A DNA stretch of 64,000 nt from a virus: IMG/VR virus record IMGVR_UViG_3300010167_000860, positions 7,964-71,963 of that record, one strand, 5' to 3'. Position 1 is the first letter of the stretch, and every line of letters starts with the position of its first letter. Made by a program: the position numbers and the translations under genes. The notes under the pieces are model-generated. The model worked only from the letters and a program-made list of their open reading frames with translations. It was not told the DNA's origin and ran no database searches. Below are positions 1-64,000 of the stretch, in pieces.

Positions 1-945
1 TAAAGAAGCTGTATTACCTTCAGTTCAGTTAGATTGAACAGGTGTTACAATATTATTGATTGCTGTATTAACATCCACTACTCATTCTAATAATGTTGAG
101 TATGCACCAGGAATATCACCTGTAATATCTTCAACACTATGCTCATGTATAGGTATAGATCCAAAAGTATAACTTGTTGCTCCAGTTGCCTGTAAAATAT
201 GTCCTGCTGTTAATCCTGATACTGTATGATAACCTCCTATTAAAGGATGGTTTTCCATACCCACTCCTGGACCTCCTGAATCTAAATTAATAGTAGCAGG
301 TCCAGATTGGTTTAATGTAAAACTGCCTTTAGGAACACCTCCTTGATTTATAGTTATAGTTGGATTATATACAGTAGGTATAGTGTTTAAAGCAGTCTGT
401 AATCCTGTAATATCAGATATACCTAAGGTATGCGTATGATTACCTGCTGCTGCCTGATTAGCATTACTACCTATCTGTATAATACCTGCTAATGATGTGC
501 TTGCAGTAGGGATACCTGTTATAGAACTTCAGGATATTACTCCTCCATTCCCTGTACTGTGGTTATGGTTTAATAACCAATTATCTAAACTTACTCCTGA
601 AAAGGTCATATTTGCAGGAGCTATATTTATATTAGCAGATAATGACAAACCATTAACTGTTCTTGTCAAAGGAACAAAATCCCCTGATACACCCCCTGTT
701 ACCTGTACTCATTGTCCTCCTCCTGCTGTACCCTGTCTTCCATAAGTATTTCCATCATTAGGAGGTTCTTCAAAAGCCATTACTTCAGTACTAAGGGGCA
801 TCCATTTACCTTTCCTTCATTCTTTTCAGGTAAAAGGATCTGTATTAATATCTACTCATATATTTGCTTCACTTAATGAAGGGGCTACATTAGAAAAGAG
901 TATATTACCCTTTTCAGTAGATATTCTTGATAAAACATTATTCAT
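1..945 (-). CDS. Tail fibre / tail-spike-like structural protein (partial, runs off window start; TGA=Trp)
   Basis: ATG at 945; frame open to position 1 if TGA=W (7 in-frame TGA, 2 TGG). Fibre-type motifs EPPNDGNTYGRQ...W, ISWSSITGIP, HTHTLGISDITGL, VQSNWTEG. Contains track ORF 82..264. Confidence 0.75.
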
Positions 946-947
946 AT

Positions 948-3371
948 TTATTTCTTTATTGGTGATTTATTAATCTGTTTATTTTTAAGTCTCAACTCTT
1001 CAGCAGTTTTCTTTTTATCAAATTCAAACTTAGCTTTTTCAAGACTATGTTTATCATTCCACTCCCTTATTTTTTCTGATAGTTCTGCTTGTTTTTCAGG
1101 GTTATATGGAACTTCCTTAGGAACTTCATTAGCTTCATTATTCATAAGATTAGTTTCACTTTGTATCCCTGCAATCATAAGTTTTGTTTCATTATCTCTT
1201 ATATTATTTTCTTCCAATAATCTTAATTTTCCTTCTTCTAAGGCTGCCTGTTGTTCTAACTGTGCCTGTTGCATCTCCCTTTCTGCTTGTGCTGCCTCTT
1301 GTTGTTGTTGCATAGTTCTTGCTTCACTCTCCTGCATAGTCCTTGTAATTTCAGCAATAGAGTTTGTAGTTTTAATCTTTATAAGGTCTGAACCTGTCAT
1401 TAACTGATTTTGTACCATAGCCTGAGCTAATCCATCTAAACTTTGTATTAATTCCTGAGATTGTCTGCTATCCTGTATTACTAATCCATAATCACACTCA
1501 CAAAATTCATCCCCATCTATATCTATAATCTTATTAGTTCCATCTGATAATAAGTATTGAAATTTCTTTTTCTGTCCTCTTAATGCTGCTTTAGCTGTTT
1601 CTATAAAACATTCTAATACCCTTTTCTTGACATTATCATGTGTCATAAATAACCATTCAGTTATATGAGAACTTTGTAACACTGACCTTTCTACTCCCCC
1701 AACAGTTTCCCTGTTATCTATAGCCCCTTCTCTTTGTTTAGTTATACCTACCATAGAGGACATAGTCTCAGTTATCCATTCTAGGACATTAACATAATGC
1801 TGTATCTCATCTCCCTGTGTAGCATCTATAACCCCTGAGGATTGATTATTCATAAGTCCTGCTAATTTTCCCATAGCAGCACCCTTATTACCTTCTTTAA
1901 AACTGTCTGTTATAGCTATCCTGTTTATCTTGGCATAATAAAGCCATTTATCTACTTCCCATCCTGATGGTACAGTTGCCAAATCCATCTTAACTATCTT
2001 ACCCCAGTTAGTAGCCATAACCTTTAGCATATTATCCATAGTAACATCATACAGATAATTATACCATTTCATCATATCTACCATAGAGTAAGGCTTACTG
2101 TCATTAAGATTATATATACTTCCTACTATTCCAAAATGACACCTTGAAGGGTTTTCTAATCTGTTATACTGAACTACTCTAGGTCTCATATTAACATAAA
2201 CCTTGCCTATCTTAGTAGCTTCTCAGGCTTCCATTATATATAATATCTCTACCTCTTCTCCCACATCTTTGTTAGGGATATAGTCCTCTGGGTAAAAATT
2301 AAAGTCCTCTTCTCCAGTCATAGGGTCATAAGACTTGACTTTTTTAATTCTTCTGTAGGATTTTCAATAAAGTCTAAGTACCCTAATATTACCAAGATTA
2401 TCAGTGATATTAGAATAACTGTACATAGGGGGACCAAATAAACCCAGCCTACCTTCAACAACAACACCTTCACCATATTCTCCTCCTCAGGGATCTAATA
2501 AATTATAACTCTTTTCCTCATCATAATTAGCCTGATTATCTAAAGATGTAGAACCAAAAGGAAGTTCTGTTATATACTTTATATCACTTTCCTTTAATAC
2601 ATCATAAAAAGTATCCTGTATCCTCCCTGGGCTTCAATAATCCCATAGAAGTATCATATCTGCATCTTCTACCCTGTTTGAAAAACCTGACCTTATAACC
2701 TGTATTTTCTTAGGATTTATTCTTTCCATAGTAGGTTCTCCTCCTACTATATCACATTGATATATCTCCTCCCCACATATCATAGCATCCATTATCCCTG
2801 AATTAAATTTTAAAGCCATATCAAGTTCTTGATAATAATGCTTTAAAAGATAATTAGCTCTTATTTCCCTAAGATCTTTTCATTTATATTTGTAGTAATC
2901 CTCTATCTTAGCTAATTGTTTTTGCTGTTCCTCCTCTGCTCCTTCCTGTTCAGGATCTATTCCCTGAGTTATCCACTGTTCTAATTCCTGCATCATAAGT
3001 TCTTTTTTCTGCTCATTCATCTCACTTATAGCTTCAGGATTAGTTACTACAACCCTTGCATCAAATCTTCTACCTCACTCTTCTCCCTTAATAATATTTA
3101 ATTTTGAATTTATAATAGGATAATGCTGTATCTTGTCAGGATTAAAACTGGATTTAATCTGATTAGGATTAAGAACTAACTGTACATCATCCATATCAAG
3201 TATTCCATTAACCAAGTTATAATTGATTATCTTATTCTTAATGGATTTTCTTGTATATGAATTATGTATAAAATAATTCTTATCTGCTCAATCTATACAC
3301 TCCATCCTCCACTTCTTATTTTTACTCCTGTAAGAAAGTTTTTGAGGAGGCATTCTATTAAAGTCTTGCAT
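948..3371 (-). CDS. Portal protein, crAss-like (~807 aa; TGA=Trp)
   Basis: Track ORFs 948..2189 and 2634..2819 share one frame with ATG 3371; the junctions examined are TGA at Trp-like positions (MEA-W-EATKIG). crAss portal-like motifs QREGAIDNRETVGGVERSVLQSSHITEW. Confidence 0.85.
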
Positions 3372-3392
3372 ATTTACAATTTTAAATATCTA

Positions 3393-3400
3393 CAAAAATA
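3393..3400 (-). promoter_or_regulatory. Bacteroidetes sigma-A -7 box (TATTTTTG) upstream of portal
   Basis: Matches the TAnnTTTG consensus ~20 nt upstream of the portal ATG. Confidence 0.55.
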
Positions 3401-3571
3401 ATAAAAAAAATAATAATTCAGTCAAATATAAAATTTTCTGTTAGATTACATAATCAATTAAAATAATAAAATAGAAATTAAACTTTCCTAAATCCTTTAT
3501 TTTAAATTCAAGTATCAAATTTATTCTTTTACTTTTGTAATGAATTTAATTAATATTTTATGAAAAAAAGT

Positions 3572-3603
3572 AAAAAGAAAGGAGGGAAATTTGCCCCCTC
3601 CTT
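3572..3603 (-). terminator. Intrinsic terminator after terL
   Basis: GGAGGG/CCCTCC stem followed by a U-rich tract on the minus strand, just after the terL stop. Confidence 0.65.
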
Positions 3604-3620
3604 ATGAGAATTTTTTTACC

Positions 3621-5981
3621 CTAATCTGCTGTAATATAACTTTTGATTTTATATTTTTCATCATACTTTCTTAATTTCTCTAACGTATTATCATTCATAT
3701 TATTATTAAACCTGTCATCATAATTTTGAGTAAAGAATTTATCATTACCTAAATAGTTTTTATCATTAGCCCTATTTTCCTTTTCTCCTGTTCCTCCTCC
3801 ATAAAGTATTAATCTTTCTTCCCTAAGAAGCATTAAAGCTCCTAAAGCATCGTGCCTATCAGTGTTTAAATCATTACTAAATGCAGCTAATTCCTTTAAT
3901 AATGCCCTATATACTATTCTTCTCAGGTTAGGTATTGTTTCTTGTATTTCCTGTGCTTCTCCCTCCTCTGCATTTTTTGATGTAAGGATTTCCACTGGTT
4001 TAAGGAGAAAGTCTCTGATATGTCTTCTGTACATATTTTTGACAGGTTCTGTGGCTGTAAATCCATAGGAACTACTTCCCAATGTTTCTTTGTAAGCATG
4101 TTTATCTTTTAAATATTCTAAAGTTTTTGATAAATATCTAAGTGAGTTATATTTTTGCATATAACTGTAAAATCCCTTTTTATTATTTTCATAACAGCAT
4201 TGTGCATTATAATACATTAATAACCTTCTGGCTATTTCAAAAGTATCATCTGAAAAAGTATATCTTCCTGTATATTCTGCTACTATATCATCTGTTCATA
4301 AATCTAATACATATACAGATAATAAAGACATAGATTGTGCTGGTCCATCAATTATATCCACAGGGTCTAATCCTGCTATATACCTTCCCCAAGGTATTTC
4401 TCCTGAACTATCATTCTCAGGATGATTTTTAATATATACTGCCCCTTCAGCTTTATTATTATTCAAAGGAAATTCCTGAATAGCTTTTACATCTAATGAA
4501 GGTTCAAAAATTACCTTACTATCCCTTATAATAAGATTGCCCTGATACATTCTATTTAATATGTCAGGATTATTATCTATTTCAAATACCCTGTCATTTA
4601 AATCTGCTACAGGGTATATAGTTCCATCTCTTCTCATTATAGCTTCCTGAAGGGTGAATGCTATCTCTGCCCTTCTTTGGGTAAGCTCCATTGGATTATT
4701 AGAATTATACTTTATAAAATATCTTTCTTTTAATTCATACACCAAAGCTCCTATAACATCGGATACCCCATCTTTATTAAAAAAAGGTCTGTAATTTACA
4801 TATCCAGGAAAAAAGAAAACAGTGTTTTTTGCTCCTAAACTGCCTCTATCATATACATTAGGAATACCATAAACATTCTTAGTTTCAGGAGAATATATCA
4901 TATCTAAAGCCCCTTCAAATGAATTTCCAGGAGTTCCTCCGGTCCCTGTACAGAAGGCTGTACCAAATACTATAGCCCCTTCTTGAACATTAGGCATAGA
5001 AGTAGCAAACCACTCATTAAATTTAGGAAATTTACCAAATTCTTCTGCAAACAATAAATCATTCCTCCTCCCTCTTGTTTTTCCAGGGTCATCTGCTATA
5101 GATATACCATTTATAGCATTTTGAGGACCTCTTTTATTATTATCAGAATCTACTCATCCACATACCCAGGACATATTAGAAGGGGATTTTTGAGAACAGG
5201 TAGTAGGAAACTGTGTGGTCTTAGATAGATGATCTAACCCAAATTCAAACTTTCCTAATATACCATCTTCTCCTGATAAATACACCTTATCACTTGCAGT
5301 AACTAATCCTACCCTATTATTACTCCTTTCCTTATCTATACCTATTGTAAATAATTTAAGCAGCATTGAAGCTAGGGAGTAGGACTTGGATTTAATCCTA
5401 GAAGATATTTCAGCACCATGAGAACCATTTTCCCTTGCTTGCTCTATATAATGAAATCTTCAATAAACTCCTTCCCAACATTCTGGTAAATCATCTTTTC
5501 TAAACCCAACTTTTTTACCTGTTTTGGTTTCAATAGTTGTGTTTAATTTCATTAATAAGTAATTAAGATAAAAATACATATCTCCTGTTATTCACTCTCC
5601 ATCACTCTCCCTTACCATACCATTTCAACACCTATCTAACTCCTGCCTAAACCATTTCATATATTCAGATTTAGGAGAAGTATTAAGTTTTAGTTTAGTA
5701 TAACAACCATACTCTTTAAAATGTAAAGCAGCAGGTCTAAAGAAATCCATATTTTCGAGATAATGAGGCATAGTTAAATTAACAATTATTCTTCCAGTTT
5801 TGTCACGTGGAAGCTCACAAGCTCTTTTTCTCTTTAGAGAAATTAAATTTTGAATAAAAGGAACATTGTTGATATAACCTAAAAAATCTTCTCAACATTC
5901 TTTTGGCATACTATCTCTAAGTTCTTCAGTAATTTTAGTTTGAAATTTATTAGTAGGAATAATTTCATTTATATTTTTCAT
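3621..5981 (-). CDS. terL: Terminase large subunit (786 aa; TGA=Trp)
   Basis: Track ORFs 3621..4217, 4296..5054 and 5154..5366 share one frame with ATG 5981. Read-through restores crAss TerL motifs ELDRC-W-NGMVRESDGE-W-ITGDMYFYLNY and DL-W-TDDIVAEYTGR; Walker B-like LFAEEFG; RNase H-like YIAGLDP; ends in TAG. Confidence 0.92.
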
Positions 5982-6841
5982 AAAAATCCTCCTGCATGTT
6001 TATATTTGCCTTCAGCACTTCTCATTATACCTCTATTATCTATTGATGTTACTCTGCTTGCTTCTCTAATACTATTAAATTCCTGAATATAATTTCCGTT
6101 CATATCATATTGAGTTACTTTTATAGACTTATTATATTTGTTTTCTTGAATTTTTACTCTTCTATCTAAATCCTCCAATTGGTTTTCTCATAAGAATATA
6201 TATCCATTAGCAGTACTACAATTTTTAAAAAAATTGCAACATGCTAATATATTTATATTACACATATTTAATTCTCTTGATGCTTCATTGGCTGATCTGA
6301 AAATTTCTATCAATTTCCCATCAAGAGAAAATTGATACACTTTTTTCTTAGAATGAGCAATTTTTATTTTTTCTATAGATTCTGCACTTCTTTTAGAACC
6401 TCTATTTTTGTTTTTATCACTTAATAAAAATGATTTTATTTTTTCTATTGTTTCTTGAGTAGGTTTATATCCACATATTCCTTCTCCACCATCAGTCATA
6501 TTATAAGACATTTCATGTGTTTTATACCATGCAATAAGATATTTTTCAGCATATACAGCATGTTTTTTTGATATACTTTCTAAAACAATTTCTTGTTTTA
6601 TATTTTCCCACCCATATTTTTTTATGGCTCTATTAAACAATTTTTGATTTTTATAGCCCCTTCCATAATTTCATCTATTATTTATACCAATTGAAGTAAT
6701 GCCAACATACACTCTATTTGAAGGAGAGGTGTGTTTATATACTGTTCATTTATTATCTTCCTCTACCTCTTTAGGCAAAGTATCTAATAACTCTCTGGTT
6801 ATTTTTGTTTGGTAGGAATTTGTTTTTATTATTTCTTCCAC
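5969..6841 (-). CDS. GIY-YIG homing endonuclease with NUMOD-type DNA-binding repeats, N-terminally fused to a TerL-like leader (290 aa; TGA=Trp)
   Basis: From GTG 6841: ...K-W-TVYKHTSPSNRVYVGITS...NNR-W-NYGRGY...FNRAIKKYGW, then two VxQ(Y/F)xxxG...HTH repeats ending ANGYIFL-W and AGGFL-W-KI*. Joins track ORFs 6188..6640 and 5978..6178. Confidence 0.88.
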
Positions 6842-6934
6842 TCTTCTTTGTTATTTATTAAAATTACTTATTTTTGCCCTTAATTCATAATATTATGAAG
6901 AAATTTCTTTTTACATTAAAATATGAAAAAGAAA

Positions 6935-6971
6935 AATAAAAAGGGAGGTGGCAGCATTAACCACCTTCCCT
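6935..6971 (-). terminator. Intrinsic terminator
   Basis: GGGAGGTGG/CCACCTTCCC stem with an A-tract on + (U-tract on -). Confidence 0.6.
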
Positions 6972-7197
6972 GATTAGAAATAATCAGTATAGTTGTTACA
7001 CTTATTAGCATTGTTATAGGAATTGCTATCCTATTCTCTGCTAACCAACAAAAAGTAAACAACTTTCATATTTATTCTCCAATAATTATTGTAGAATAGT
7101 GTCTCTTTATTAAAAAGAGTTTAACAAGTATCATCACATACTTGATAAAGCTGTATAATCAGTTTTTCCTCAGGATATGATTCCTGAGGATTTTTCT

Positions 7198-7362
7198 TTA
7201 TTCCAAAAAAAATCCCATTACATAATCACACTTTTCACATTTATAAACATCCATAATTCTTTTCATTTTTATACCTTCTTTATTCATATTAGATTCTATA
7301 AAGCTAACAAGTTTTTTCTTAATATAGTTACATTTAGGACAAGGATAGTCTTGTATTTTCAT
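7198..7362 (-). CDS. Small zinc-ribbon protein (54 aa)
   Basis: MKIQDYPCPKCNY...YKCEKCDYVMGFFLE*; two CxxC pairs; below the track length cutoff. Confidence 0.6.
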   Translation of the reverse strand: MKIQDYPCPKCNYIKKKLVSFIESNMNKEGIKMKRIMDVYKCEKCDYVMGFFLE

Positions 7363-7480
7363 AACTCTTTGTTATTATTTCCTGTTAGGAATTTTGTGAG
7401 ATATATTTTATAGTACTATATGTAATGCTTGTTTACAGGAGTACTTTTTATTCCACAAAACTCCATAACAAGAAAATTAT

Positions 7481-7789
7481 TTAACATCCCTCATTACCTT
7501 CTTTATACATATCTTTAACCAAGTCATAGTTCTTTCATTTCTTATATTCACCTGATATTAGTATATCAAATAAATATTCAAATATATCAGCTTCAAGATC
7601 ATCAAATCCAGTATTTTTAAATTCCTTCAATAACTTCCTTGAGGTATCAGGATAATTAACCTGATATAATCTGAATATAAAAACATTCTTATTTGTAAAG
7701 CCTTGTCTTTCTACTCCCTTCTCAACAACTAAAGTACATAGTCCTGAGATTTTTTTGTTTATTAGGTCTAATGATTTATATATATTCAT
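7481..7789 (-). CDS. Hypothetical protein (extended through TGA 7535)
   Basis: Track ORF 7535..7789 stops at TGA; read-through adds WKNYDLVKDMYKEGNEGC to TAA 7481. Confidence 0.55.
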
Positions 7790-7945
7790 AGTTTAATATT
7801 CAAGTATTATATCTGCTAATTTTATCTTAATTCAATTAAAACACAATTCAAAAAAATTATCATCTTTTTTCATTGATTTTTCTTTTCTATCTTTTTTTCT
7901 TCTTTCTGAGTTTATCTCTAAATTATCATTTTCTTTCATAATATC

Positions 7946-8167
7946 TTATAATGTATTTATTAACTCTTGTTTTGTTCTAAATAGATTTTCTTCACGAAAA
8001 CCAGCAATAGTAAGACCATATATATGAAAACAAACTTCTGATTTTACATTTAAAAAATATAAAACTTTATCATCACTATCTAAAAAAATACCTGTAATAA
8101 TATCTTTTTTAATCCCATCTTCAGTTATACGAAATACCTCATCATATAAATTATACTTGTTTTTCAT
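7946..8167 (-). CDS. Hypothetical protein
   Basis: ORF track; resembles the short phage family pattern of 27404..27628 (F-x-I-x-E/D-E-V-F...LF-x-T-x-E-E). Confidence 0.55.
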   Translation of the reverse strand: MKNKYNLYDEVFRITEDGIKKDIITGIFLDSDDKVLYFLNVKSEVCFHIYGLTIAGFREENLFRTKQELINTL

Positions 8168-8180
8168 ACCTTATAATATT

Positions 8181-8711
8181 TTATACATTTGACAAGCCAA
8201 GATCACCTATTGTAAGTTGTGTTTTTCCCCTTACCTTAGCACTCTGTTCCTCTATATCTTTAAATATCTCCTTTTCAGCTATAGACAGTTCTACTGCTAA
8301 CTTATTACTATCTGATATAGCCTTAGTAAATTTAGCCATATTATCATCATCTAATACAAGTTCATCTAAAAAGGTATTAAGTTTATCCATCCTTCTCCTA
8401 TTCCCATCTATAAGTTTTGAAGAAGATGTTATTACCATTTTCTGATAAATATCTACACACTGTTTATATTCAGGAAAATCAAGAAATTCATTTATATCTT
8501 CTATTCCTAAAGCCTCACTTACTGTTTCTATTTTCTCATCCCAGTCAGTTATATAATTATAATCAGAGCCAGGATGAAACATAAAATACAAATAACCAAA
8601 GATAGTCATAGCCTCATCAGCATTTCTTTCATACATATCCCTGAAACATTTTATATGAAATGCTTCATCAGATATTACTAATTCATTATTTTTAAATTCT
8701 ATTAGTTTCAT
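8181..8711 (-). CDS. Conserved crAss-like hypothetical protein of the terminase neighbourhood
   Basis: 176 aa; GYLYFMFHPGSDYNYI motif recalled from crAss genes near terL; no in-frame TGA. Confidence 0.6.
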   Translation of the reverse strand: MKLIEFKNNELVISDEAFHIKCFRDMYERNADEAMTIFGYLYFMFHPGSDYNYITDWDEKIETVSEALGIEDINEFLDFPEYKQCVDIYQKMVITSSSKLIDGNRRRMDKLNTFLDELVLDDDNMAKFTKAISDSNKLAVELSIAEKEIFKDIEEQSAKVRGKTQLTIGDLGLSNV

Positions 8712-8898
8712 CTTCAGTAGTGTAATAAGGATTATCTGTCATATATAATATTACTTTATGTTTACTATTTTCTCCAACATAACATTTAGGTAGTATCTTG
8801 TAACACATCTTATTCTTTACATCATTTTCAAACTTTACAAATACCTTTGCTTCATTAGAAAACTGTTCCAAATATTTTTTAAATTCTATTAGTTTCAT
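8692..8898 (-). CDS. Hypothetical protein flanked by 21-bp direct repeats
   Basis: ORF track; repeats at 8691-8711 and 8878-8898. Confidence 0.55.
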   Translation of the reverse strand: MKLIEFKKYLEQFSNEAKVFVKFENDVKNKMCYKILPKCYVGENSKHKVILYMTDNPYYTTEDETNRI

Positions 8899-9124
8899 TC
8901 CCTGTATCTATTATTAAATAATCCCTCTTATCTTTGTAAAGTTTATTATCAAGATATATACCTCTAACATCTATTTCTTTGAATCTTTGATCTGGAACTT
9001 TATTTCCTTCTTCAGTAATTGTATGTCCATAACTTTTTTCTATGATATTTATATTAGGACATTCAGAGGCTTTTAAATGTTTAACTACTGTTTCTAATAT
9101 CTGAATTAAAATTATTCTATCCAT
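8879..9124 (-). CDS. Hypothetical protein
   Basis: ORF track; overlaps and is translationally coupled to the next gene. Confidence 0.5.
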   Translation of the reverse strand: MDRIILIQILETVVKHLKASECPNINIIEKSYGHTITEEGNKVPDQRFKEIDVRGIYLDNKLYKDKRDYLIIDTGNETNRI

Positions 9125-9155
9125 TCTATATATCTTATTTTTTATAAATCTAAAT

Positions 9156-9500
9156 CTATTTTTTGTTTTCTAACCTTTCATTCCACTTATAAAATTGTAA
9201 TACTCTACTATCCATCACCCCTTCCTCTATAAGTGTTATAGCCTCACTTTCTGTTATAGGGAATATCCTAAAGTGCAGAAATACAAAGTAGAGGTATGCT
9301 AAACTTACAGCTAAAGGAACAAACATTAAGTAAAATATAAGATTTATATCCTGATAGGAATAACCACACATTAAGGCTGATAATACTAATGAAGGAAATC
9401 CCCACAAAGTACACTTATTATAGTTAAGTTGATGTTTCCCTAATTTAAGCGCTGAAGCAATACAAAATTGCTTTATTATAAATAATCTAAATTTTGTCAT
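9156..9500 (-). CDS. Small membrane protein (two hydrophobic segments)
   Basis: LWGFPSLVLSALMCG and LIFYLMFVPLAVSLAYLYFVFL segments. Confidence 0.55.
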   Translation of the reverse strand: MTKFRLFIIKQFCIASALKLGKHQLNYNKCTLWGFPSLVLSALMCGYSYQDINLIFYLMFVPLAVSLAYLYFVFLHFRIFPITESEAITLIEEGVMDSRVLQFYKWNERLENKK

Positions 9501-9511
9501 ATTAATCTTTT

Positions 9512-9546
9512 AAAAACCCCCTGGCTATCCATCAACCAGGGGTAAA
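9512..9546 (-). terminator. Intrinsic terminator
   Basis: CCCCCTGG/CCAGGGGG 8-bp stem with an adjacent A-tract on +. Confidence 0.65.
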
Positions 9547-9574
9547 GTGTACAACGTGTTAATTTTAATGTTAA

Positions 9575-10009
9575 CTAGTTCAAAAGATGGATTTTTGAAT
9601 TTTTCTTTTTCTTATATGCCTTACCTGAAGATACCTCTTGTTGTTCTTCCATTTCAAGAATAATAAACACAATATCATTACATCTAAGGTTAAGACATTC
9701 CTTATTATCTATATCAATAGTAGGGATACTAAATGCTAATTGCTGACTATACTGCTCATCAAATCCCTGTATAGCATCTTTCCTTTGTACAGGTCTGGCG
9801 TAATTATAAAAATTTACCATAACTGTATCTCCTACATTAATTCCTCTTTGTTCTGCCCCTGATGAGGTAAACAAAACTTCCTGGTATTCCTTAAAATTAC
9901 CAGACTTTGTTGGATCTAATAATCCCCCTGTAGTATAAACTTCATCATACCTGTTTCCTGTGGTTATTATCCCATCCATTAATGGTTTTACTTTCTTTAA
10001 TACTAACAT
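9575..10009 (-). CDS. GroES-like co-chaperonin (crAss type)
   Basis: KKVKPLMDGIIT...GINVGDTVMVNF...DIVFI resembles the GroES KPLxDRV / VKVGDxV pattern. Confidence 0.6.
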   Translation of the reverse strand: MLVLKKVKPLMDGIITTGNRYDEVYTTGGLLDPTKSGNFKEYQEVLFTSSGAEQRGINVGDTVMVNFYNYARPVQRKDAIQGFDEQYSQQLAFSIPTIDIDNKECLNLRCNDIVFIILEMEEQQEVSSGKAYKKKKNSKIHLLN

Positions 10010-10068
10010 CCTTTTTTTCCTCCTTTTTTACCACCCTTTTTTACTGGGCTATTTTTTTGTCCTTTCAT
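10003..10068 (-). CDS. 21-aa Lys/Gly-rich basic peptide MKGQKNSPVKKGGKKGGKKGC
   Basis: ATG 10068 after an A-rich leader; TAG overlaps the start of the GroES-like gene. Confidence 0.5.
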   Translation of the reverse strand: MKGQKNSPVKKGGKKGGKKGC

Positions 10069-10089
10069 AATTTTGTTCTTTTAATTGTT

Positions 10090-10383
10090 TTAATCCTTTA
10101 ATATTTCAATTCCATACTCCTTACATACTTGATGTTCTACCCTACATCCTCTTGCATCCTGCCATCCTTCCATAAAATATACACAATCTGCATCTGATAT
10201 ACATTCTATTGATTTTGCAAGATATTTTACTGGCACATTTCCTTTACTTATAAAATCAGGAAATATAGTACTTATAATCTCATAACCATCCTTTAATAAT
10301 CTTTTTATAACAGGTTCTCTCTCTTCCCTAATTTCCCCTTCTGTCTTACCATTCATAGGCTGACAAATAACTACTTGCATCAT
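10090..10383 (-). CDS. DUF4406-like / nucleoside-deoxyribosyltransferase-fold protein
   Basis: ICQPMNG...ADCVYFMEGWQDARGCRVEH pattern. Confidence 0.6.
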   Translation of the reverse strand: MMQVVICQPMNGKTEGEIREEREPVIKRLLKDGYEIISTIFPDFISKGNVPVKYLAKSIECISDADCVYFMEGWQDARGCRVEHQVCKEYGIEILKD

Positions 10384-10384
10384 A

Positions 10385-10657
10385 CTACTTATACTTTATA
10401 ATATTTAACTCTCTCTTTTTCCTTAATTTCTTTAAATCTATAAAAAATCTACAAAACTTAGGAATAAAAAAATTAGTCCCAAGTTCTGCAATATTTTCTA
10501 CAGGTAATCCTTTTAATTCAGGTAATCCCTTAACTGTAACCTTCATAAATGAAAATACACTATCATATACCTTTTTTATTACCTCAGGGCTTCTATGATG
10601 CTTATTTCCCAAAGTAACAAACAAATCATTCAAAGATTTATAATTAGTCAGTTTCAT
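10385..10657 (-). CDS. HU/IHF-like DNA-binding protein (crAss type)
   Basis: Basic 90 aa; VIKKVYDSVFSFMK...TNFFIPKF resembles crAss IHF-like proteins. Confidence 0.5.
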   Translation of the reverse strand: MKLTNYKSLNDLFVTLGNKHHRSPEVIKKVYDSVFSFMKVTVKGLPELKGLPVENIAELGTNFFIPKFCRFFIDLKKLRKKRELNIIKYK

Positions 10658-11036
10658 TTATATTAAAAGCTACTAACAATGTAAATTTATTATTAGATAT
10701 ATCAGGAATAATCCTCCTGTTTAAATCCCCATTCTGTATAACACCTATACTCTTAAACAAAGATATTAAGTTATAATACCCAGCCTTTGAAGTTTCTATA
10801 CTCTCCATAACACAATTCCTTGTTTCTACAGAGAATAATAACTGTGGGATAAGTTTAGGTTCAGTAACCCCTTTAGAAATTTCATACCTCTTAGTTAATA
10901 AAACTGCTAAGGCTTCCATAGGTTTAGTTCCTAATTTTGAAATAGGTTCTAAAGGTTTTATAAACAGTAACCATTTCTTGTAAAAATCTAATAATGAACT
11001 ACAAGTTAAATTTATTGATGAATTACCTTTTACCAT
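10644..11036 (-). CDS. Hypothetical protein
   Basis: ORF track, 130 aa, within the operon. Confidence 0.55.
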   Translation of the reverse strand: MVKGNSSINLTCSSLLDFYKKWLLFIKPLEPISKLGTKPMEALAVLLTKRYEISKGVTEPKLIPQLLFSVETRNCVMESIETSKAGYYNLISLFKSIGVIQNGDLNRRIIPDISNNKFTLLVAFNINETD

Positions 11037-11038
11037 AA

Positions 11039-11353
11039 CTACTGATTATCTGTGTTAGTTTCCTCTTCCTCTTTAGGAGGATAAAGTATAGCTATTAATT
11101 CATTAGCCATAATTTTGTTAGCCTCTTCAGGAAAACATTCCTTATTAAATTCTATGTAGGAACACTGTAGTTTCAAACATTCTAATAATAATGATATTCT
11201 ACTTATTTTCCCAGCTTCCTGATAAGCCTTTTGTTTCCATAAATTAGCCTGCTCTTCCATCTGTAGTAAAGCATTCTTTAGTTGTTCATAAGACAACTTT
11301 TCATCTTTTTGTCCCATATTAATTATAGGAGCTTCATTCTTATTTTCTTCCAT
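11039..11353 (-). CDS. Hypothetical coiled-coil protein
   Basis: KLSYEQLKNALLQMEEQ helix; ORF track. Confidence 0.55.
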   Translation of the reverse strand: MEENKNEAPIINMGQKDEKLSYEQLKNALLQMEEQANLWKQKAYQEAGKISRISLLLECLKLQCSYIEFNKECFPEEANKIMANELIAILYPPKEEEETNTDNQ

Positions 11354-11364
11354 TTGTTTAAAAT

Positions 11365-11745
11365 TTATTCTATATTTATATGTAAATAATTTAACTCTTC
11401 TCTTGTATATTGAACTACATAATATTCACTTATCATTTCTTCAATTTCATTAGTTATACTGTCCCTATCATTCTTCTTATTTAAAAATTCCTGGTATTCT
11501 TTATACTCTTTGAGATTTTTAAATACTCTGGGAGGTTGTAAAGCCAGTCATTCAAAAATACTTCCCTCACTAATATTAGTACTTAAACAATGTTCACAAT
11601 AAGTATTGGGACATCCTTTAACAGTACTGTTTAAAGATAATATAGATAAAGACAGACATCTATTACATCATAAGACAGGTTCATCATTATACTCAGTATT
11701 TATCTGTGATGGACTGTATTCTTGCAAACATTCTTCAATTTCCAT
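11365..11745 (-). CDS. Zinc-binding protein, crAss-type (126 aa; TGA=Trp; absent from track)
   Basis: MEIEECLQ...YNDEPVL-W-CNRCLSLSI...YCEHCLSTNISEGSIFE-W-L; two CxxC pairs; two in-frame TGA. Confidence 0.75.
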
Positions 11746-11746
11746 A

Positions 11747-12139
11747 TTAAGTTCAGTTAATATTATTCAAATCCATCTTTACAGCAAATTTAGGAATTAT
11801 AGACTGCCTTGCTAATTCCTCAACAATCTTATAATCCTTATCCAAAGTTTCCTTCAATATCCATCTAACATTTCCTGTCATTTGATACTTAACTTTAACT
11901 GCTAACTCTGAAATTTCAAGGGTATAAATCTCTATTATCTCAGGAGGAGTAAATAATGGTCTTGGAGTACCATAAATAAGGTATCTATTAAGTACCTTTA
12001 AATCTTTAGTGCTTAAACTATTACTCTTACAGCAGTTCTCTATATTTTCCACAGGCACAGGTCTTTTCTTTTCTTCCTGTTTCCTTATTTTCTCATCAAT
12101 AACCTCTTCCATTGTAGGTTTTACTTTCTCTTTTTTCAT
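11747..12139 (-). CDS. Hypothetical protein (TGA read-through to TAA 11747)
   Basis: Track ORF ends at TGA 11753; read-through gives ...NINWT* with TAA-T-ATG coupling to the next gene. Confidence 0.6.
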
Positions 12140-12166
12140 AATTGTTATTTTATTTATTTTTAATTG

Positions 12167-12238
12167 CGGGCTTACAAGGCTATGCTCCCTGGACTTTAGT
12201 TTTGAAGACTAATATATTTCTGATTATACTATAAACCC
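12167..12238 (-). tRNA. Opal suppressor tRNA-Trp (anticodon UCA), non-canonical D and T loops
   Basis: GGGTTTA-TA-GTAT-AATCAGAA-ATAT-A-TTAGT-CT[TCA]AA-ACTAA-AGTC-CAGGG-AGCATAG-CCTTG-TAAGCCC-G: 7/4/5/5-bp stems, 72 nt, U33, A37, G73 discriminator; CCA not encoded. Confidence 0.85.
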
Positions 12239-12243
12239 CTATT

Positions 12244-12489
12244 TCAATATACTGTTAAAAACATTATACAATTTTTTCCATTTTTATTCTCACAAAAAAT
12301 ATGTTTCCTTTTATTATACATTATATAGTAATATACTAATGAATTTTTTCTTTCAATTACATCTATCCCTTTTTTAAACAAATCTGCTAAATATTGAAAC
12401 CTTTCTCCAGGTCTAAGATTTAGTCTTTCTTTAAGTCTGTTAGAACCGTGATTAGTTATTACTATATTCATATTACTTATTATACACAT
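12244..12489 (-). CDS. Small protein with possible BECR/DUF4258-like RNase-fold signature
   Basis: ITNHGSNRLKERL near the N-terminus, MFLTVY at the C-terminus; ends at TGA (read-through extends to TAG 12229). Confidence 0.45.
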   Translation of the reverse strand: MCIISNMNIVITNHGSNRLKERLNLRPGERFQYLADLFKKGIDVIERKNSLVYYYIMYNKRKHIFCENKNGKNCIMFLTVY

Positions 12490-12689
12490 AAACTCTTTTG
12501 AAATAATTCTTCCCTATATTTATCATAAGCCTTAGTATCTCCTAATAAAGAGTGCATATGGGGATCTATCTCCAACATAATCTTTCTTACTAAATCTCTT
12601 GAGGGATGTCCTGAGGCTTTCTGTGTAGCTTCTATAGTATAGCCTTTCCTAAGACAAGCTTTTATCTTTGTTCTTATAGATTCATTCAT
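12480..12689 (-). CDS. Hypothetical protein, possible HTH
   Basis: KACLRKGYTIEATQKASGHPSRDLVRKI. Confidence 0.45.
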   Translation of the reverse strand: MNESIRTKIKACLRKGYTIEATQKASGHPSRDLVRKIMLEIDPHMHSLLGDTKAYDKYREELFQKSLCV

Positions 12690-12784
12690 AATTGTTCTAT
12701 TTTATTAAGAAATTTTAGTTAGGAACTCTGTAATAACTCTTTTATTAAAAAAGAAAGGAGCTTAATAAACTGTTGAAAAAAAGT

Positions 12785-12818
12785 AAAAACTTCCCCCTGC
12801 TAGTTCAGGGGTTTTTCT
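12785..12818. terminator. Possible bidirectional terminator
   Basis: CCCCTG/CAGGGG stem flanked by AAAAA and TTTTT. Confidence 0.5.
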
Positions 12819-12894
12819 ATTACAAATATTCCTAACTAAAAACTTCCTAATACCATTCATAATTGTTTTATTTTTTTAAACTTCATCATTCTTG

Positions 12895-12963
12895 AAAGGA
12901 TGGCAGGATATAAACCTGCAATCTCCTGATAAAATCCAGGGCTTTAATTTAAGCTACATCCCT
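12895..12963 (-). tRNA. Degenerate tRNA-like cloverleaf (pseudo-tRNA; anticodon not assignable)
   Basis: AGGGATG/CATCCTT acceptor, GCTT/AAGC D-stem, CCTGG/TCAGG stem with a 6-nt loop ATTTTA, GCAGG/CCTGC T-stem with loop TTTATAT. Confidence 0.55.
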
Positions 12964-12976
12964 TACTACAAAAAAA

Positions 12977-13183
12977 TTATTCTTCAACTGTACTAATATT
13001 CAAAGTATCAGATTCCAAGTAAATATCTTCTAATTCCTCAGTAATCTCATAAACTTCCATCTTTACTTCTTCTTGTAGTTTACCCTTGTTATGCTGAATT
13101 ACACATAACAAGATTACTAACATTACTATTAAGCCCACTATTCCAAATATTACAGGCTTTAACCAAGTTTTTAATGTTTCCAT
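12977..13183 (-). CDS. Small bitopic membrane protein
   Basis: VIFGIVGLIVMLVILLCVI transmembrane segment followed by an acidic tail. Confidence 0.6.
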   Translation of the reverse strand: METLKTWLKPVIFGIVGLIVMLVILLCVIQHNKGKLQEEVKMEVYEITEELEDIYLESDTLNISTVEE

Positions 13184-13210
13184 TCACAAATATATTTATT
13201 AAATTTTTCA

Positions 13211-13218
13211 CAAAGGTA
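13211..13218 (-). promoter_or_regulatory. -7 box TACCTTTG heading the leftward operon that contains the suppressor tRNA
   Basis: Exact TAnnTTTG match on the minus strand. Confidence 0.55.
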
Positions 13219-13400
13219 AGGATTATTTTAATATATCCAAACATATTTTAAAATATTTTTATTGATTTTTGTTATAAATATATAAATATTATAAACACTA
13301 TATCTTTTAAGATAAAATTACGTTTACAAAATTATAACAAAAGTTTAAGAAATTGAAATGTTTAAACTATGTTTAAACTATTAGTATTATTAATTTTTAT

Positions 13401-13408
13401 TACCTTTG
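13401..13408 (+). promoter_or_regulatory. -7 box TACCTTTG immediately upstream of the half-tRNA
   Basis: Consensus match ending 5 nt before tRNA position 1. Confidence 0.6.
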
Positions 13409-13413
13409 ATTTT

Positions 13414-13452
13414 GCCTTCTTAGCTCAGCGGTAGAGCAGCTCACTCGTAATG
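13414..13452 (+). tRNA. Truncated tRNA-Thr(CGT), positions 1-40 only
   Basis: GCCTTCT-TA-GCTC-AGCGGTA-GAGC-A-GCTCA-CT[CGT]AA-TG, then unrelated A-rich sequence; no T arm or 3' acceptor strand. Confidence 0.85.
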
Positions 13453-13552
13453 GAAAAATTATATTAAAAAACACAGTATTTACACATTTTCTCCCTTATA
13501 CTTTTTGCAATAATCCATTAATTGTTTAAACTATGTTTAAACCAAAATTTTT

Positions 13553-14761
13553 ATGAGTACATCTGTTTCTATAGTATGTTATAAGTCAAAAATATTATCT
13601 AGCGGGAAACATCCCCTAATGTTGAGAATTATAAAAAACAGAAAGCCTAAGTACAAAAATTTAGGCATTTATGTATATCCTGATGAATGGGATTTTAAAA
13701 AGAATAAGCCTAAACTAAAATGTCCTAATAGGGAGGCTATACTTAATATTATACGTCAGAAAGAAACAGAAATACAAAGTGAAATAATTGAATTAAATAC
13801 TATAAATAAAGAATATACACCACAATCATTACTAAGCCCTAATAAAAAAGTTACTATAAAAACAGTTGAGGAATTATTTGAAAAAACTATAACACAATTA
13901 AAAGAAGAGAATAGGTTAAACTATGCAAGAATATTTAAACATACTAAAGGCTCAATAAAAAAATTCTGTAATAATAATCTAGATTTCTTATTTCCCAGTA
14001 TAGATGTTGAATGGCTTAGTAAATATGAACTGTGGTTAAGAAAAAACAACTGTAATGAAGTTACTATAGCCACAGTCTTTAGGATACTAAGAAGAATGTA
14101 TAATATAGCAATAACTGAAAAATGTGCTGCAAAAGATAGTTATCCTTTTAATGAATTTAAAATATCTAAATTTGATATTACAACTGAGAAAAGAGCTATT
14201 CCTAAAGAAGCTATAAAGAAAATAATAGAAACAGATGTAGAAGAAAAAGACCACTATACAAAACTTAGTAAAGACCTGTTTATATTTAGTTATCTATGTG
14301 GGGGTATAAATTATACAGACATTGCTCATCTAAAACAAAGTAACCTTGTAGATGGAAAATTAAAGTATATAAGAAAAAAAACAGGTAAGAAAATCAATAT
14401 ACCCCTATCTAATGAAACACTGGTTATTATTAACAAATATCTTACAGAGGATAATGCTTTTATTTTCCCTATATTACACAGTAAAATTCATTTAACAGAG
14501 TTACAAAAATTTAACAGACTGCATAAAGTATTAGCTAAAATAAATAATTCATTAAGAAAAGTGTCTGAACTAGCAGAAATAAAAGGAAATATAACAACCT
14601 ATGTAGCCAGACATTCCTTTGCTACAATATTAAAAAACTCAGGTGTAAATATTGCCCTTATAAGTGAAACATTAGGACACTCTGATTTAAAAACTACTCA
14701 AATATATCTTGATAGTTTTGAAAGTAGTCAGATAGGAGAAGCATTTAAAAATCTATTATAA
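13553..14761 (+). CDS. int: Tyrosine recombinase / integrase, Bacteroidetes three-domain type (arm-binding, SAM-like, catalytic)
   Basis: MSTSVSIVCYKSK...HPLMLRI arm-binding N-terminus; RKKT, YVARHSFAT, LGHS, TQIYL catalytic motifs; box I reads GGINYTD. Confidence 0.92.
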   Translation: MSTSVSIVCYKSKILSSGKHPLMLRIIKNRKPKYKNLGIYVYPDEWDFKKNKPKLKCPNREAILNIIRQKETEIQSEIIELNTINKEYTPQSLLSPNKKVTIKTVEELFEKTITQLKEENRLNYARIFKHTKGSIKKFCNNNLDFLFPSIDVEWLSKYELWLRKNNCNEVTIATVFRILRRMYNIAITEKCAAKDSYPFNEFKISKFDITTEKRAIPKEAIKKIIETDVEEKDHYTKLSKDLFIFSYLCGGINYTDIAHLKQSNLVDGKLKYIRKKTGKKINIPLSNETLVIINKYLTEDNAFIFPILHSKIHLTELQKFNRLHKVLAKINNSLRKVSELAEIKGNITTYVARHSFATILKNSGVNIALISETLGHSDLKTTQIYLDSFESSQIGEAFKNLL

Positions 14762-15097
14762 TAAAACCTCTTGGTTATCAGCCCTTATCCCCTGAATATT
14801 TTCATAGTATCTGTATAAGATACAACAGGCTATTTAAAATTCCATGCTTTGTTATCCCAAGAGGTTAAGCAAGAATCCCTATAAAGGACCCCGTATCTCC
14901 TTTAACTATGGTTAATGAGATTATCTTGTCCCAGCTAATAATATCATACTGGGAAATCCTTTACTTTCTATCCACTCTGTAAAGCTCATAAATGGATTAT
15001 AATCACTTAATATATTTCTCTCAGGCATATAGCCCTGTATAGGTGATGTATGATTATAGTTAAACTTTGTTACTAAAGTACTCATAATATTATGTTT

Positions 15098-15403
15098 TTA
15101 ATTTTTTCTTCTTTTCTTTGAACCAAGCTCTTCTTTAAGAGAACCCTTAATATTCTTAATTTTCTTTGCTATTCTCTTGGAACTTTCTTTTGGTAAAACA
15201 CCATTATTTTCAATAAAAGCCCATTCATCTCTATAATTCATTCTGGACCTGTTATAAATTACATTAGCCATATTATCTACCCCAGTCTTACCATATAATT
15301 CCCTAATATATTTCTTTCTTCTAGAATAATTTTCAGCATTCTTTTTCTTAACCATCTTGTCTACAGCTAAGTCCTTATAAATATTTGAAATTGAATATCC
15401 CAT
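15098..15403 (-). CDS. Basic hypothetical protein
   Basis: ORF track, 101 aa, Lys/Arg-rich. Confidence 0.5.
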   Translation of the reverse strand: MGYSISNIYKDLAVDKMVKKKNAENYSRRKKYIRELYGKTGVDNMANVIYNRSRMNYRDEWAFIENNGVLPKESSKRIAKKIKNIKGSLKEELGSKKRRKN

Positions 15404-15419
15404 AATTACAGTTTACTTC

Positions 15420-16310
15420 ACAATTGGGCATAGCTATCCCCTAATTATTTTATTAATAATTACTTAAAATTAAGACAATAAGAGACCCTGGCAATTTATT
15501 TCATTTTTTTACTTTTTAAAGGAAAAGCTTTATTAAAAATGTTGCCAAATGGTTTTACCCTCTGTAGTACAAGTATTATCCCCCGTTCTCTCCTTATTAT
15601 TAGTTTCCCTGAACTATCTATAATTGTGTTACTTATCTAACTCTTAACTATCCTTTCAGGTAAATGGTTAACACCCCATCTTTTTTCTACCTTACTAATT
15701 CCCTTGCCTGACCCTTCATAATACCCTTTATTCTCTTATGCTGGTAGGGACAAAGATAATCCTACTACATTAAAATTTATTTTACAAAGATAATACATTT
15801 TTTTAAAAAATGGTAAGATATAATAAAATTTATTATATGTTAGGGCAAAATTTAACATTTGAAAGTCTATTTAACATAATATAACTAAAATTAAGCCCTT
15901 ATTTGTGAGTACATATATATAAGGTATGGTATAAGGTATGTTATAAAGATAAAATATGGGGTTCTTCTCCCTTTAAATTTACCCCCATCCCTTTGTGTGT
16001 ATAGGTAAATATACCCCCTGTTCTTTATATAATACTCTTTTATGTGTATGTCTGTAAGTAAAGCAGTAAAAAAATCTCCCCTATTCTTTTATGTGGTAGT
16101 CTGTTTATAGTAAACCTTACACTTATTTATGTGATAGTCTAAAATTACATATACCCTTTTATATGTATGTCTGTCCAAGTAATTTTTTATCTATACTTGT
16201 TTATAAGGGAGTCTTTATATAAAAATACTATACTTGTTTATATGTTACTCTATCCCCAACCCCTCCCCTGCCACTATTTGCAGTGGGACTATACCCCTGT
16301 ATAACCTTTA
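15420..16310. other. Large non-coding strand-switch region (candidate origin / early-promoter region)
   Basis: ~900 nt without ORFs between divergent gene blocks; minus-strand TATCTTTG boxes at 15751-15758 and 15785-15792; repeats and C-runs. Confidence 0.55.
16038..16251 (+). repeat. Six degenerate TTTAT(G/A)TGnnnGTCT-type direct repeats (iteron-like)
   Basis: Copies start near 16038, 16087, 16126, 16157, 16200 and 16237; exact CTATACTTGTTTATA at 16191-16205 and 16228-16242. Confidence 0.65.
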
Positions 16311-22207: not shown

Positions 22208-22486
22208 TTAACCTCTCTTTATATACCATTTCTCAAGTAAAAGGTTTATATCACTGTTTTTATAGTAATATATGCCTTTTAATTGGGTATAAGGAATAAT
22301 ATTTTCCTTCCTGTAAGTTTGTAAAGTTCTTGGGGATATTTTTAATTTCCTCATAACTTCAAAACTATCTATCCAATCTTCTTTATAAGGTTGGATATTT
22401 TCTAATATTTTATTTAGCAGTTCTTCAATAGAACCTAATTTGCTTAGGATATTTATATCCTCATCTAAACTTTTTTTGTATCACAC
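22208..22486 (-). CDS. HTH_17/MerR-like excisionase (RDF)-type protein, 92 aa; start requires TGA read-through or a -1 slip
   Basis: EDWIDSFEVMRKLKISPRTLQTYRKENIIPYTQLKGIYYYKNSDINLLL matches the Bacteroides Xis-like HTH pattern; frame begins GTG-TGA; absent from track. Confidence 0.75.
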
Positions 22487-59720: not shown

Positions 59721-59727
59721 ATATTTA

Positions 59728-63999: not shown

Positions 64000-64000
64000 A

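Follow-up and report, generated by a model that had tools for sequence, protein, structure and literature searches.

A putative attP-integrase module carrying the 5' half of tRNA-Thr(CGT) in a crAss-like phage from termite gut

Anatomy of the locus and its integrase

The window analyzed here is a 64,000-nucleotide (nt) stretch, positions 7,964 to 71,963, of the virus record IMGVR_UViG_3300010167_000860. This record is a single sequence of 105,836 bp with a GC content of 28.8%, and it is present in three termite-gut metagenome runs (X1 to X3) from two studies. The subject of this work is a gene for a tyrosine integrase (int) and the sequence directly upstream of it, which a first-pass annotation had described as a phage attachment site (attP) directed at the bacterial gene for tRNA-Thr(CGT). 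Along one strand, the region contains a left arm of tandem boxes, a promoter-like box, a core that copies the first part of the tRNA gene, a spacer, a right arm, and then int (Table 1).

Table 1. Features of the putative attP-int module and of other genes discussed in the text, in window coordinates
Feature	Position	Strand	Basis or remark
Left (P) arm, TGTTTAAACTA x2, tandem 11-nt boxes	13359..13380	+	Repeat comparison; genome 11-mer count
-7-type box TACCTTTG	13401..13408	+	Matches Bacteroidetes consensus TAnnTTTG; 5 nt before tRNA position 1
Putative attP core, exact tRNA-Thr(CGT) nt 1-39	13414..13452	+	Alignment with bacterial tRNA genes
Spacer from core to right arm, 70 nt	13453..13522	+	No terminator, no significant RNA structure
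Right (P') arm, TGTTTAAACTA + TGTTTAAACCA	13523..13544	+	Repeat comparison; 8 nt, then int ATG
Tyrosine integrase (int), 402 amino acids	13553..14761	+	Standard code, without in-frame TGA; stop TAA
Non-canonical tRNA, anticodon UCA	12167..12238	-	Rfam tRNA 46.6 bits; ARAGORN only at low stringency
Second non-canonical tRNA-like gene	12895..12963	-	Rfam 40 bits
HTH_17 small open reading frame, candidate excisionase/regulator	22208..22486	-	31.3 bits; 7.5 kb from int

The core spans the 5' strand of the acceptor stem, the D arm, the 5' strand of the anticodon stem, the anticodon loop CTCGTAA (13444-13450), and 2 nt more. Identity between phage and tRNA thus starts at tRNA position 1 and takes in the first 2 nt of the anticodon stem on its 3' strand, after which the two diverge (TGGAA in the phage, TGAGC in the tRNA); by blastn-short, the 39-nt match has an E value of 2.5e-17. 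Tandem repeats lie on both sides of this core, as first described, and a repeat finder matched one arm region to the other over 35 nt, as a direct repeat at 83% identity. The exact 11-mer TGTTTAAAC(C/T)A (TGTTTAAACYA) occurs four times in the 105,836-bp genome, compared with approximately 0.55 expected occurrences, and all four copies lie at this site, on one strand, in two tandem pairs. This pattern of arms and core exceeds chance. The arm boxes are presumed to be binding sites for the N-terminal arm-binding domain of the integrase, and the anticodon loop presumably serves as the 7-bp overlap region, with the crossover position placed by where the tRNA identity ends. Because the core has arms on both sides, the anatomy supports an unrecombined attP, which agrees with the initial impression of an intact site followed shortly by the int start codon. 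An independent 11.3-kb contig from the Joint Genome Institute (JGI) is 100% identical and likewise in the attP form, so that two assemblies agree.

The start codon assigned to the integrase is backed by the N termini of homologs. Its product has three Pfam domains, Arm-DNA-bind_5, Phage_int_SAM_5, and Phage_integrase (E = 2e-22, 6e-19, and 1e-17, respectively; all above the curated cut-offs), and its PHROG profile match is to integrase, while searches of PDB and NCBIfam with this protein returned generic tyrosine recombinase matches only. The first-pass annotation had worried that the enzyme might be inactive, since the canonical box-I arginine of tyrosine recombinases is absent and the column holds an asparagine instead (Asn253, in GGIN). 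In an alignment of 22 family sequences, the phage protein included, 28 columns are invariant, and the phage integrase has all of them (28/28). Residues R214, N253, R274, K276, Y350, R353, H354, and H376 are invariant across the 22, and Y385 is nearly so. An asparagine at the box-I column is therefore found in 22/22 members, including the integrases of chromosomally inserted elements, which makes it a family trait and not a defect. With its three domains and every family-invariant residue in place, the integrase looks intact. Its GC content at third codon positions (GC3) is 16%, compared with 16 to 20% for other genes of the phage and 25 to 28% for bacterial homologs; this phage-like value, below that of the bacterial homologs, argues against a very recent capture.

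To place the core among bacterial tRNA-Thr genes, as the first-pass annotation had proposed, the exact 39-mer was scanned against one genome per prokaryotic species. Six Bacteroidota assemblies matched (one Bacteroidales, one Marinilabiliaceae, one Cytophagaceae, and three Prolixibacteraceae), and in all six genomes the 39-mer is positions 1 to 39 of a 73-nt tRNA-Thr(CGT) gene. The claim that the core is the 5' half of this tRNA, with identity ending just past the anticodon loop, thus holds at 39/39 nt. Among 401 sampled Bacteroidales species, 2 have the exact 39-mer and 13 more differ from it by 1 to 2 nt; with a single exception, these differences fall at acceptor-stem positions 5-6. Since the exact match is rare and the mismatches lie mostly in the acceptor stem, the phage copy matches a particular acceptor-stem variant. 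The rarity of this variant (2/401) fits a matching of the phage to particular hosts, and in such a host the hybrid gene would be identical to the original tRNA gene. As a pointer to the host, this predicts a Bacteroidales species whose tRNA-Thr(CGT) has the GCCTTCT acceptor variant. The termite-gut runs that contain the phage are also rich in k-mers matching this tRNA (depth 127 to 263, versus 7 to 16 for the phage), and an exact scan for the core in IMG/VR returned 0 matches.

As a separate observation on this tRNA, runs X1 to X3 contain a 41-nt contig that corresponds to 13409-13449 (ATTTT plus tRNA nt 1-36) and has a depth of 33, compared with 7 for the phage. This contig points to a second, more abundant sequence that has in common with the phage the 5 nt upstream of the tRNA and differs from it from 13408 leftwards.

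The first-pass annotation had also credited the module with its own promoter. The box TACCTTTG is indeed present 5 nt before the core, and what speaks for its activity is the motif itself. An identical TTACCTTTG lies at 13210-13218 in the opposite orientation, before a leftward gene, and TACCTTTG is also found 10 nt upstream of bacterial tRNA-Thr(CGT) genes (locus L003, and a loose contig end in X4, an additional run from the same study). The stretch from the core to int has no further TAnnTTTG box, no terminator, and no stable structure, and RNA folding of the leader was not significant (z = -0.81). Given the twin box, the box before bacterial tRNA-Thr genes, and the lack of any other box, terminator, or structure in between, int is probably transcribed from TACCTTTG through the tRNA half. 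A sigma-70 scan is uninformative for Bacteroidetes promoters.

Carrier genome and relatives of the integrase

Phages of the crAss-like group are among the most abundant viruses of the gut. In the genome that carries the module, the portal protein (phrog_6547, E = 3e-122) and the large terminase (phrog_6681, E = 3e-72) match crAss-type PHROGs, and the portal is 52 to 53% identical to those of Bacteroides phage DAC15 and cr111_1 (Crassvirales, Steigviridae, Asinivirinae). Together with a length of 105.8 kb, these matches bear out the earlier assignment of the carrier as crAss-like and identify it, by protein similarity, as a Steigviridae-like Crassvirales phage from termite gut.

The carrier also appears to be recoded. 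Frames of 3406, 1876, and 1460 amino acids (aa) appear only when TGA is read through, and such frames are almost all on the minus strand, among the late genes (window 1-12500 and 49575-64000). The plus-strand early block that includes int is nearly free of in-frame TGA. The non-canonical tRNA(UCA) listed in Table 1 is likely an opal suppressor for the TGA-recoded late genes; the anticodon loop of the second tRNA-like gene (12895-12963) apparently has 6 or 8 nt instead of 7. The small HTH_17 open reading frame (ORF), which we only tentatively assign to the integration system, has a TGA at codon 6 of the printed full-length frame, and when read in the standard code, only a 48-aa piece is open, starting inside the first helix.

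Among 5.8 billion proteins, the nearest relatives of the integrase, its own copy aside, are 53 to 62% identical to it and come from Dysgonomonas, Paludibacteraceae, Tannerella, and metagenome contigs; when it was used as a single-protein query against IMG/VR, no relatives were confirmed. Every relative whose context can be read has the same setting, in which bacterial genes are followed by a tRNA gene, approximately 100 to 120 bp, and then the integrase with foreign cargo. The tRNA genes targeted are tRNA-Val(GAC) in L007, tRNA-Val(TAC) in the Dysgonomonas locus L008, and tRNA-Pro(TGG) in L030/L031. In one case (L007/L012), both ends of the 18.9-kb element are on one contig (ENA contig k141_3487102). 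These ends are bounded by a perfect 54-bp direct repeat (9838-9891 in L007, 546-599 in L012) that consists of tRNA-Val nt 1-49 and 5 upstream nt. Because the repeat covers nt 1-49, this element also replaces the 5' part of its target.

The sequences upstream of these integrases are likewise related. Upstream of the start codon, the phage, L007, L008, and L030 genes align gap-free over 60 nt, and all four stretches contain two TAAAC(C/T) boxes 11 nt apart, with approximately 10 nt from the end of the second box to the ATG. A second pair of boxes (ATAAACCAA x2) lies in L012, at the opposite end of the L007/L012 element, approximately 55 nt from the core, so joining the two ends of the element yields the arm-core-arm-int layout of the phage. 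We regard this joined-end layout as the strongest comparative argument that the phage site may be a working attP.

Compared with elements from termite gut and other Bacteroidales (L007/L012 and the island L008 of Dysgonomonas sp. 216), the phage module has an integrase that is 57 to 60% identical with the same three domains, a tRNA target, a TAAAC(C/T) pair near the int ATG, and a second pair beyond the core; in L007 and L030, int also faces the 5' end of the tRNA. The Bacteroidales elements, however, are small islands or otherwise non-crAss and are inserted, whereas the module described here is carried by a crAss-like phage of 105.8 kb that was seen in the free state. The phage also differs in its target, tRNA-Thr(CGT), and in that its tRNA half is co-directional with int, so that int would adjoin the truncated host copy and not the rebuilt gene. 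Judged by their portals, five IMG/VR records that have related integrases are not crAss-like. The phage module is an acquisition separate from those of other integrase-bearing crAss-like genomes (below); it comes from the termite-gut Bacteroidales element pool and has an unusual 5'-half design.

Bacteroides elements offer further points of reference. The IntDOT protein of CTnDOT and the IntN1 protein of NBU1 are tyrosine recombinases with an arm-binding N-terminal domain, and IntDOT reportedly lacks the canonical first arginine at box I. NBU1 uses the 3' end of tRNA-Leu; CTnDOT is not known to target a tRNA gene.

The L007/L012 element has further content of its own. Its genes include a 1047-aa ORF that contains four in-frame TGA codons, its own tRNA(tca), tRNA-Leu, and tRNA-Arg, and P63C and GmrSD genes, and it has a few genes in common with the phage. 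It may be a recoded mini-prophage or a satellite.

Proposed integration and competing explanations

We favor the reading, as a likely one, that the locus works as a lambda-type attP/int module, exchanging the 5' half of a host tRNA gene, and that the phage can probably insert into the chromosome of its host. In the proposed course of events, the genome would circularize, and host RNA polymerase would start at TACCTTTG and read the 39-nt tRNA half as a leader, followed by int, which needs no suppressor tRNA because it is in the standard code. The N-terminal domain of Int would bind the paired arm boxes on both sides, and its core-binding and catalytic domains would bind the anticodon stem region. 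Int would then pair attP with the host tRNA-Thr(CGT) gene, and strand exchange would take place in the 7-nt anticodon loop. At attR, the phage arm, phage promoter, and phage 5' half would be joined to the host 3' half, resulting in a tRNA with the original sequence; attL would consist of the host promoter, the host 5' half that was displaced, the right arm, and int, in this order. This geometry is as the first-pass annotation had described it, with an intact tRNA at attR and int behind the host promoter at attL. After integration, the host tRNA promoter would thus drive int, and the phage promoter would drive the rebuilt tRNA. It is from sequence that we infer recombination activity, the crossover position, promoter use, and lysogeny. 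The locus would present a concrete, testable case of classical integration in Crassvirales, with an apparently intact integrase and an attachment site that matches a host tRNA base for base, and it displays a rare arrangement in which the element would supply both the 5' half and the promoter of its target tRNA.

Several observations weigh against this reading. The TAnnTTTG motif is frequent in this AT-rich genome (128 occurrences in the window, compared with approximately 105 expected), so the box alone is weak evidence for a promoter. CheckV estimates the genome to be 92% complete, and it lacks a terminal repeat. In JGI metagenome contigs, a scan that may not have covered the phage's own records, there were 0 matches to an attR-specific 55-mer and 0 matches to the 39-mer of attP and attL. 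No other contig with this integrase at more than 62% identity was found among the 5.8 billion proteins. A close crAss-like portal was found neither in the 401 Bacteroidales species nor in five tRNA-matching genomes (G001-G005; the genome of L006 was left out), and the portal search of those genomes gave two distant matches only, one of them on a 96-kb, phage-sized contig. No HTH_3 or Peptidase_S24 repressor domain was found in the phage genome, a search in which divergent regulators could be missed, and the small ORFs around int had no family matches in Pfam or PHROG. In addition, cultured Steigviridae have been described as non-lysogenic (PMC8375218, PMC6235969), and descriptions of crAss-like phages call them incapable of lysogeny or lysogenic at very low rates (PMC8375218, PMC6235969, PMC10983915). 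The temperate lifestyle put forward by the first-pass annotation therefore goes further than these scans, which found no attL/attR junction, no lysogen, and no repressor.

The 96-kb contig (L033/L034, G375:C25) belongs to a Bacteroidales assembly and carries a distant crAss-like portal with 26% identity. Given its phage-like size, this contig may represent a phage that was binned with the genome, or else an extrachromosomal form.

The missing lysogens, junctions, and repressor would also be in keeping with a module that is real but idle, captured from a Bacteroidales integrative element by a phage that is virulent or has a carrier or plasmid-like state and does not integrate. This explanation gains from the fact that, without exception, the nearest integrases lie in bacterial islands or in proviruses that are not crAss-like, as well as from publications that call crAss-like phages non-integrating (PMC8375218, PMC10983915). 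However, the gene is intact and lacks none of the family-invariant residues, and its GC3 is phage-like and unlike that of the bacterial homologs, which argues against recent passive capture. The four arm boxes and the perfect 39-nt core have also been kept, whereas an unused site would be expected to decay. Thus, we consider an idle module unlikely, although it is a possibility to be taken seriously.

A functional attP in a free phage genome, which we favor, also has to be set against the possibility that the attP form is an assembly artifact at the 39-nt repeat and that the real state is a prophage (attL plus attR) whose ends were joined by the assembler. We aligned Logan contigs (k = 31) from the three runs that hold the phage and from X4 to 11500-15500. 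The contigs of all three holder runs break at the core, with the left piece ending at 13438-13441 and the right piece starting at 13423, and core k-mers are 10 to 20 times deeper than the phage, which speaks for such an artifact. Because the 39-nt core exceeds k = 31 and is common to abundant bacteria, Logan contigs cannot separate attP from attL and attR. The same attP join was nevertheless made in two separate assemblies, the contig ends lie 21 kb from the site, depth is alike on both sides of the site, and the arm-core-arm layout is that of the attP rebuilt from the two ends of an inserted relative. An artifact is for these reasons improbable and, if it were the right explanation, would strengthen the claim that the phage integrates.

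It is also conceivable that the recombinase resolves multimers or serves plasmid-like maintenance in the style of Cre/lox and that the likeness of its site to a tRNA is incidental. In favor of this, the prototypic crAssphage has been suggested to live as a phage-plasmid (PMC10983915). A resolution site would not need a perfect 39-nt 5' half of a host tRNA that ends at the anticodon stem, however, and members of the same integrase family are seen inserted at tRNA genes, so we consider this explanation very improbable.

Finally, we reject as scarcely credible the two remaining readings, that a passenger element lies inside a phage tRNA-Thr gene or that the 39 nt begin a complete non-canonical phage tRNA. 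They draw on the nearby non-canonical phage tRNAs that ARAGORN missed, but in the 105.8-kb genome (92% complete), searches for a complete tRNA-Thr, a tRNA 3' half, a T-loop motif, and a further core copy were all negative. The Rfam tRNA model is silent over 13414-13560 even at E <= 1, no pairing with the acceptor or anticodon stem is possible for the sequence past nt 39, and the single core with arms on both sides indicates an unrecombined site. The first-pass annotation had named a 3' half elsewhere in the genome as a finding that would overturn its interpretation, and none was found in the 92% of the genome at hand.

Comparison with known systems and with other crAss-like integrases

As summarized in PMC8371274 (citing Williams 2002 and Cossu 2017), integration at tRNA genes nearly always restores the 3' part of the gene and keeps the host promoter, and sites in the 5' half are known from pTN3-like archaeal integrases and are seldom met in bacteria. 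The phage module resembles lambda Int/attP and tRNA-targeting integrases (Williams 2002 and Campbell 2003, as cited in PMC8371274) in that it has a core shared with attB, two-sided arm sites, and a separate arm-binding domain. A further common feature is that the anticodon stem-loop is a natural place for the core, with an overlap of 7 bp, which is presumed in the phage. The module differs from lambda and from nearly all bacterial cases in that the 5' half and the promoter would be supplied by the element and in that the canonical box-I arginine is an asparagine across the family. With the pTN3-like elements of Thermococcales (Cossu et al. 2017, as cited in PMC8371274), the module would share an attB in the 5' half of a tRNA gene and a rebuilt tRNA that depends on an element-borne promoter; those elements are archaeal plasmids or viruses with a presumably unrelated integrase lineage.

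A second comparison concerns the genetic code. Borges et al. (10.1101/2021.08.26.457843) described Garnet and Topaz, TAG-recoded prophages of 24-25 kb that were seen integrated at tRNA genes, proposed that the genetic code partitions lysis from lysogeny, and treated crAss-like phages as virulent. The present phage is like Garnet and Topaz in its recoded late genes, in an integrase free of the recoded stop, and in its putative integration at a tRNA gene. Those phages, however, are non-crAss, use TAG recoding, and were observed integrated, whereas the present phage uses TGA recoding. More boldly, the present phage could be truly temperate and Steigviridae-like, with the direction of recombination set by its genetic code. 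Here, int, in the standard code, would be read from the tRNA-type promoter of the phage or, in a lysogen, from the host tRNA-Thr promoter, so Int would be made in any cell. The HTH_17 gene, the only excisionase-like one, needs read-through of an early TGA, and its product would therefore be made only once the phage tRNA(UCA) is active. With Int always made and HTH_17 gated by tRNA(UCA), excision and the lytic program would be coupled via the code switch. We regard this reading as speculative and rather unlikely.

Integrases have been noted in a subset of crAss-like phages, according to a statement in PMC9980608 that cites Yutin 2021; the main text of Yutin 2021 makes no mention of crAss-like integrases. 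Three of the five portal relatives of the phage in IMG/VR carry integrases. Two of these relatives, G406 (99.9 kb) and G407 (94.3 kb; loci L027 and L026, respectively), are complete genomes with terminal repeats and encode a three-domain integrase that is 26% identical to that of the phage. Approximately 100 nt upstream of int, on the same strand, both contain a fragment of tRNA-Ala(UGC) that runs from the anticodon stem to the 3' end. The integrase family of this type (P0122-P0241) has hundreds of members, many of them on contigs of 93-103 kb (IMG/VR, ENA, and Logan); its int adjoins a giant polymerase gene, and all copies seen are in the free form. The G406/G407 clade and the present phage thus both combine a crAss-like genome with a Bacteroidetes-type integrase and a tRNA fragment, but the fragment in G406/G407 is the canonical 3' half of the tRNA, whereas that in the present phage is the 5' half. 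Since several crAss-like genomes carry integrases, integration-type modules recur in Crassvirales, and the uniqueness implied by the first-pass annotation was overstated, as other crAss-like genomes in IMG/VR have integrases with tRNA-derived sites. Taken with the G406/G407 clade, the present locus suggests that integration modules in Crassvirales are under-appreciated.

The third relative (G409; L029 2245-3488) is a 28-kb crAss-like fragment with a 371-aa tyrosine recombinase that is convergent with a complete tRNA-Met(CAT). GGTTGC repeats precede the start of this recombinase, and the fragment could be the end of a prophage.

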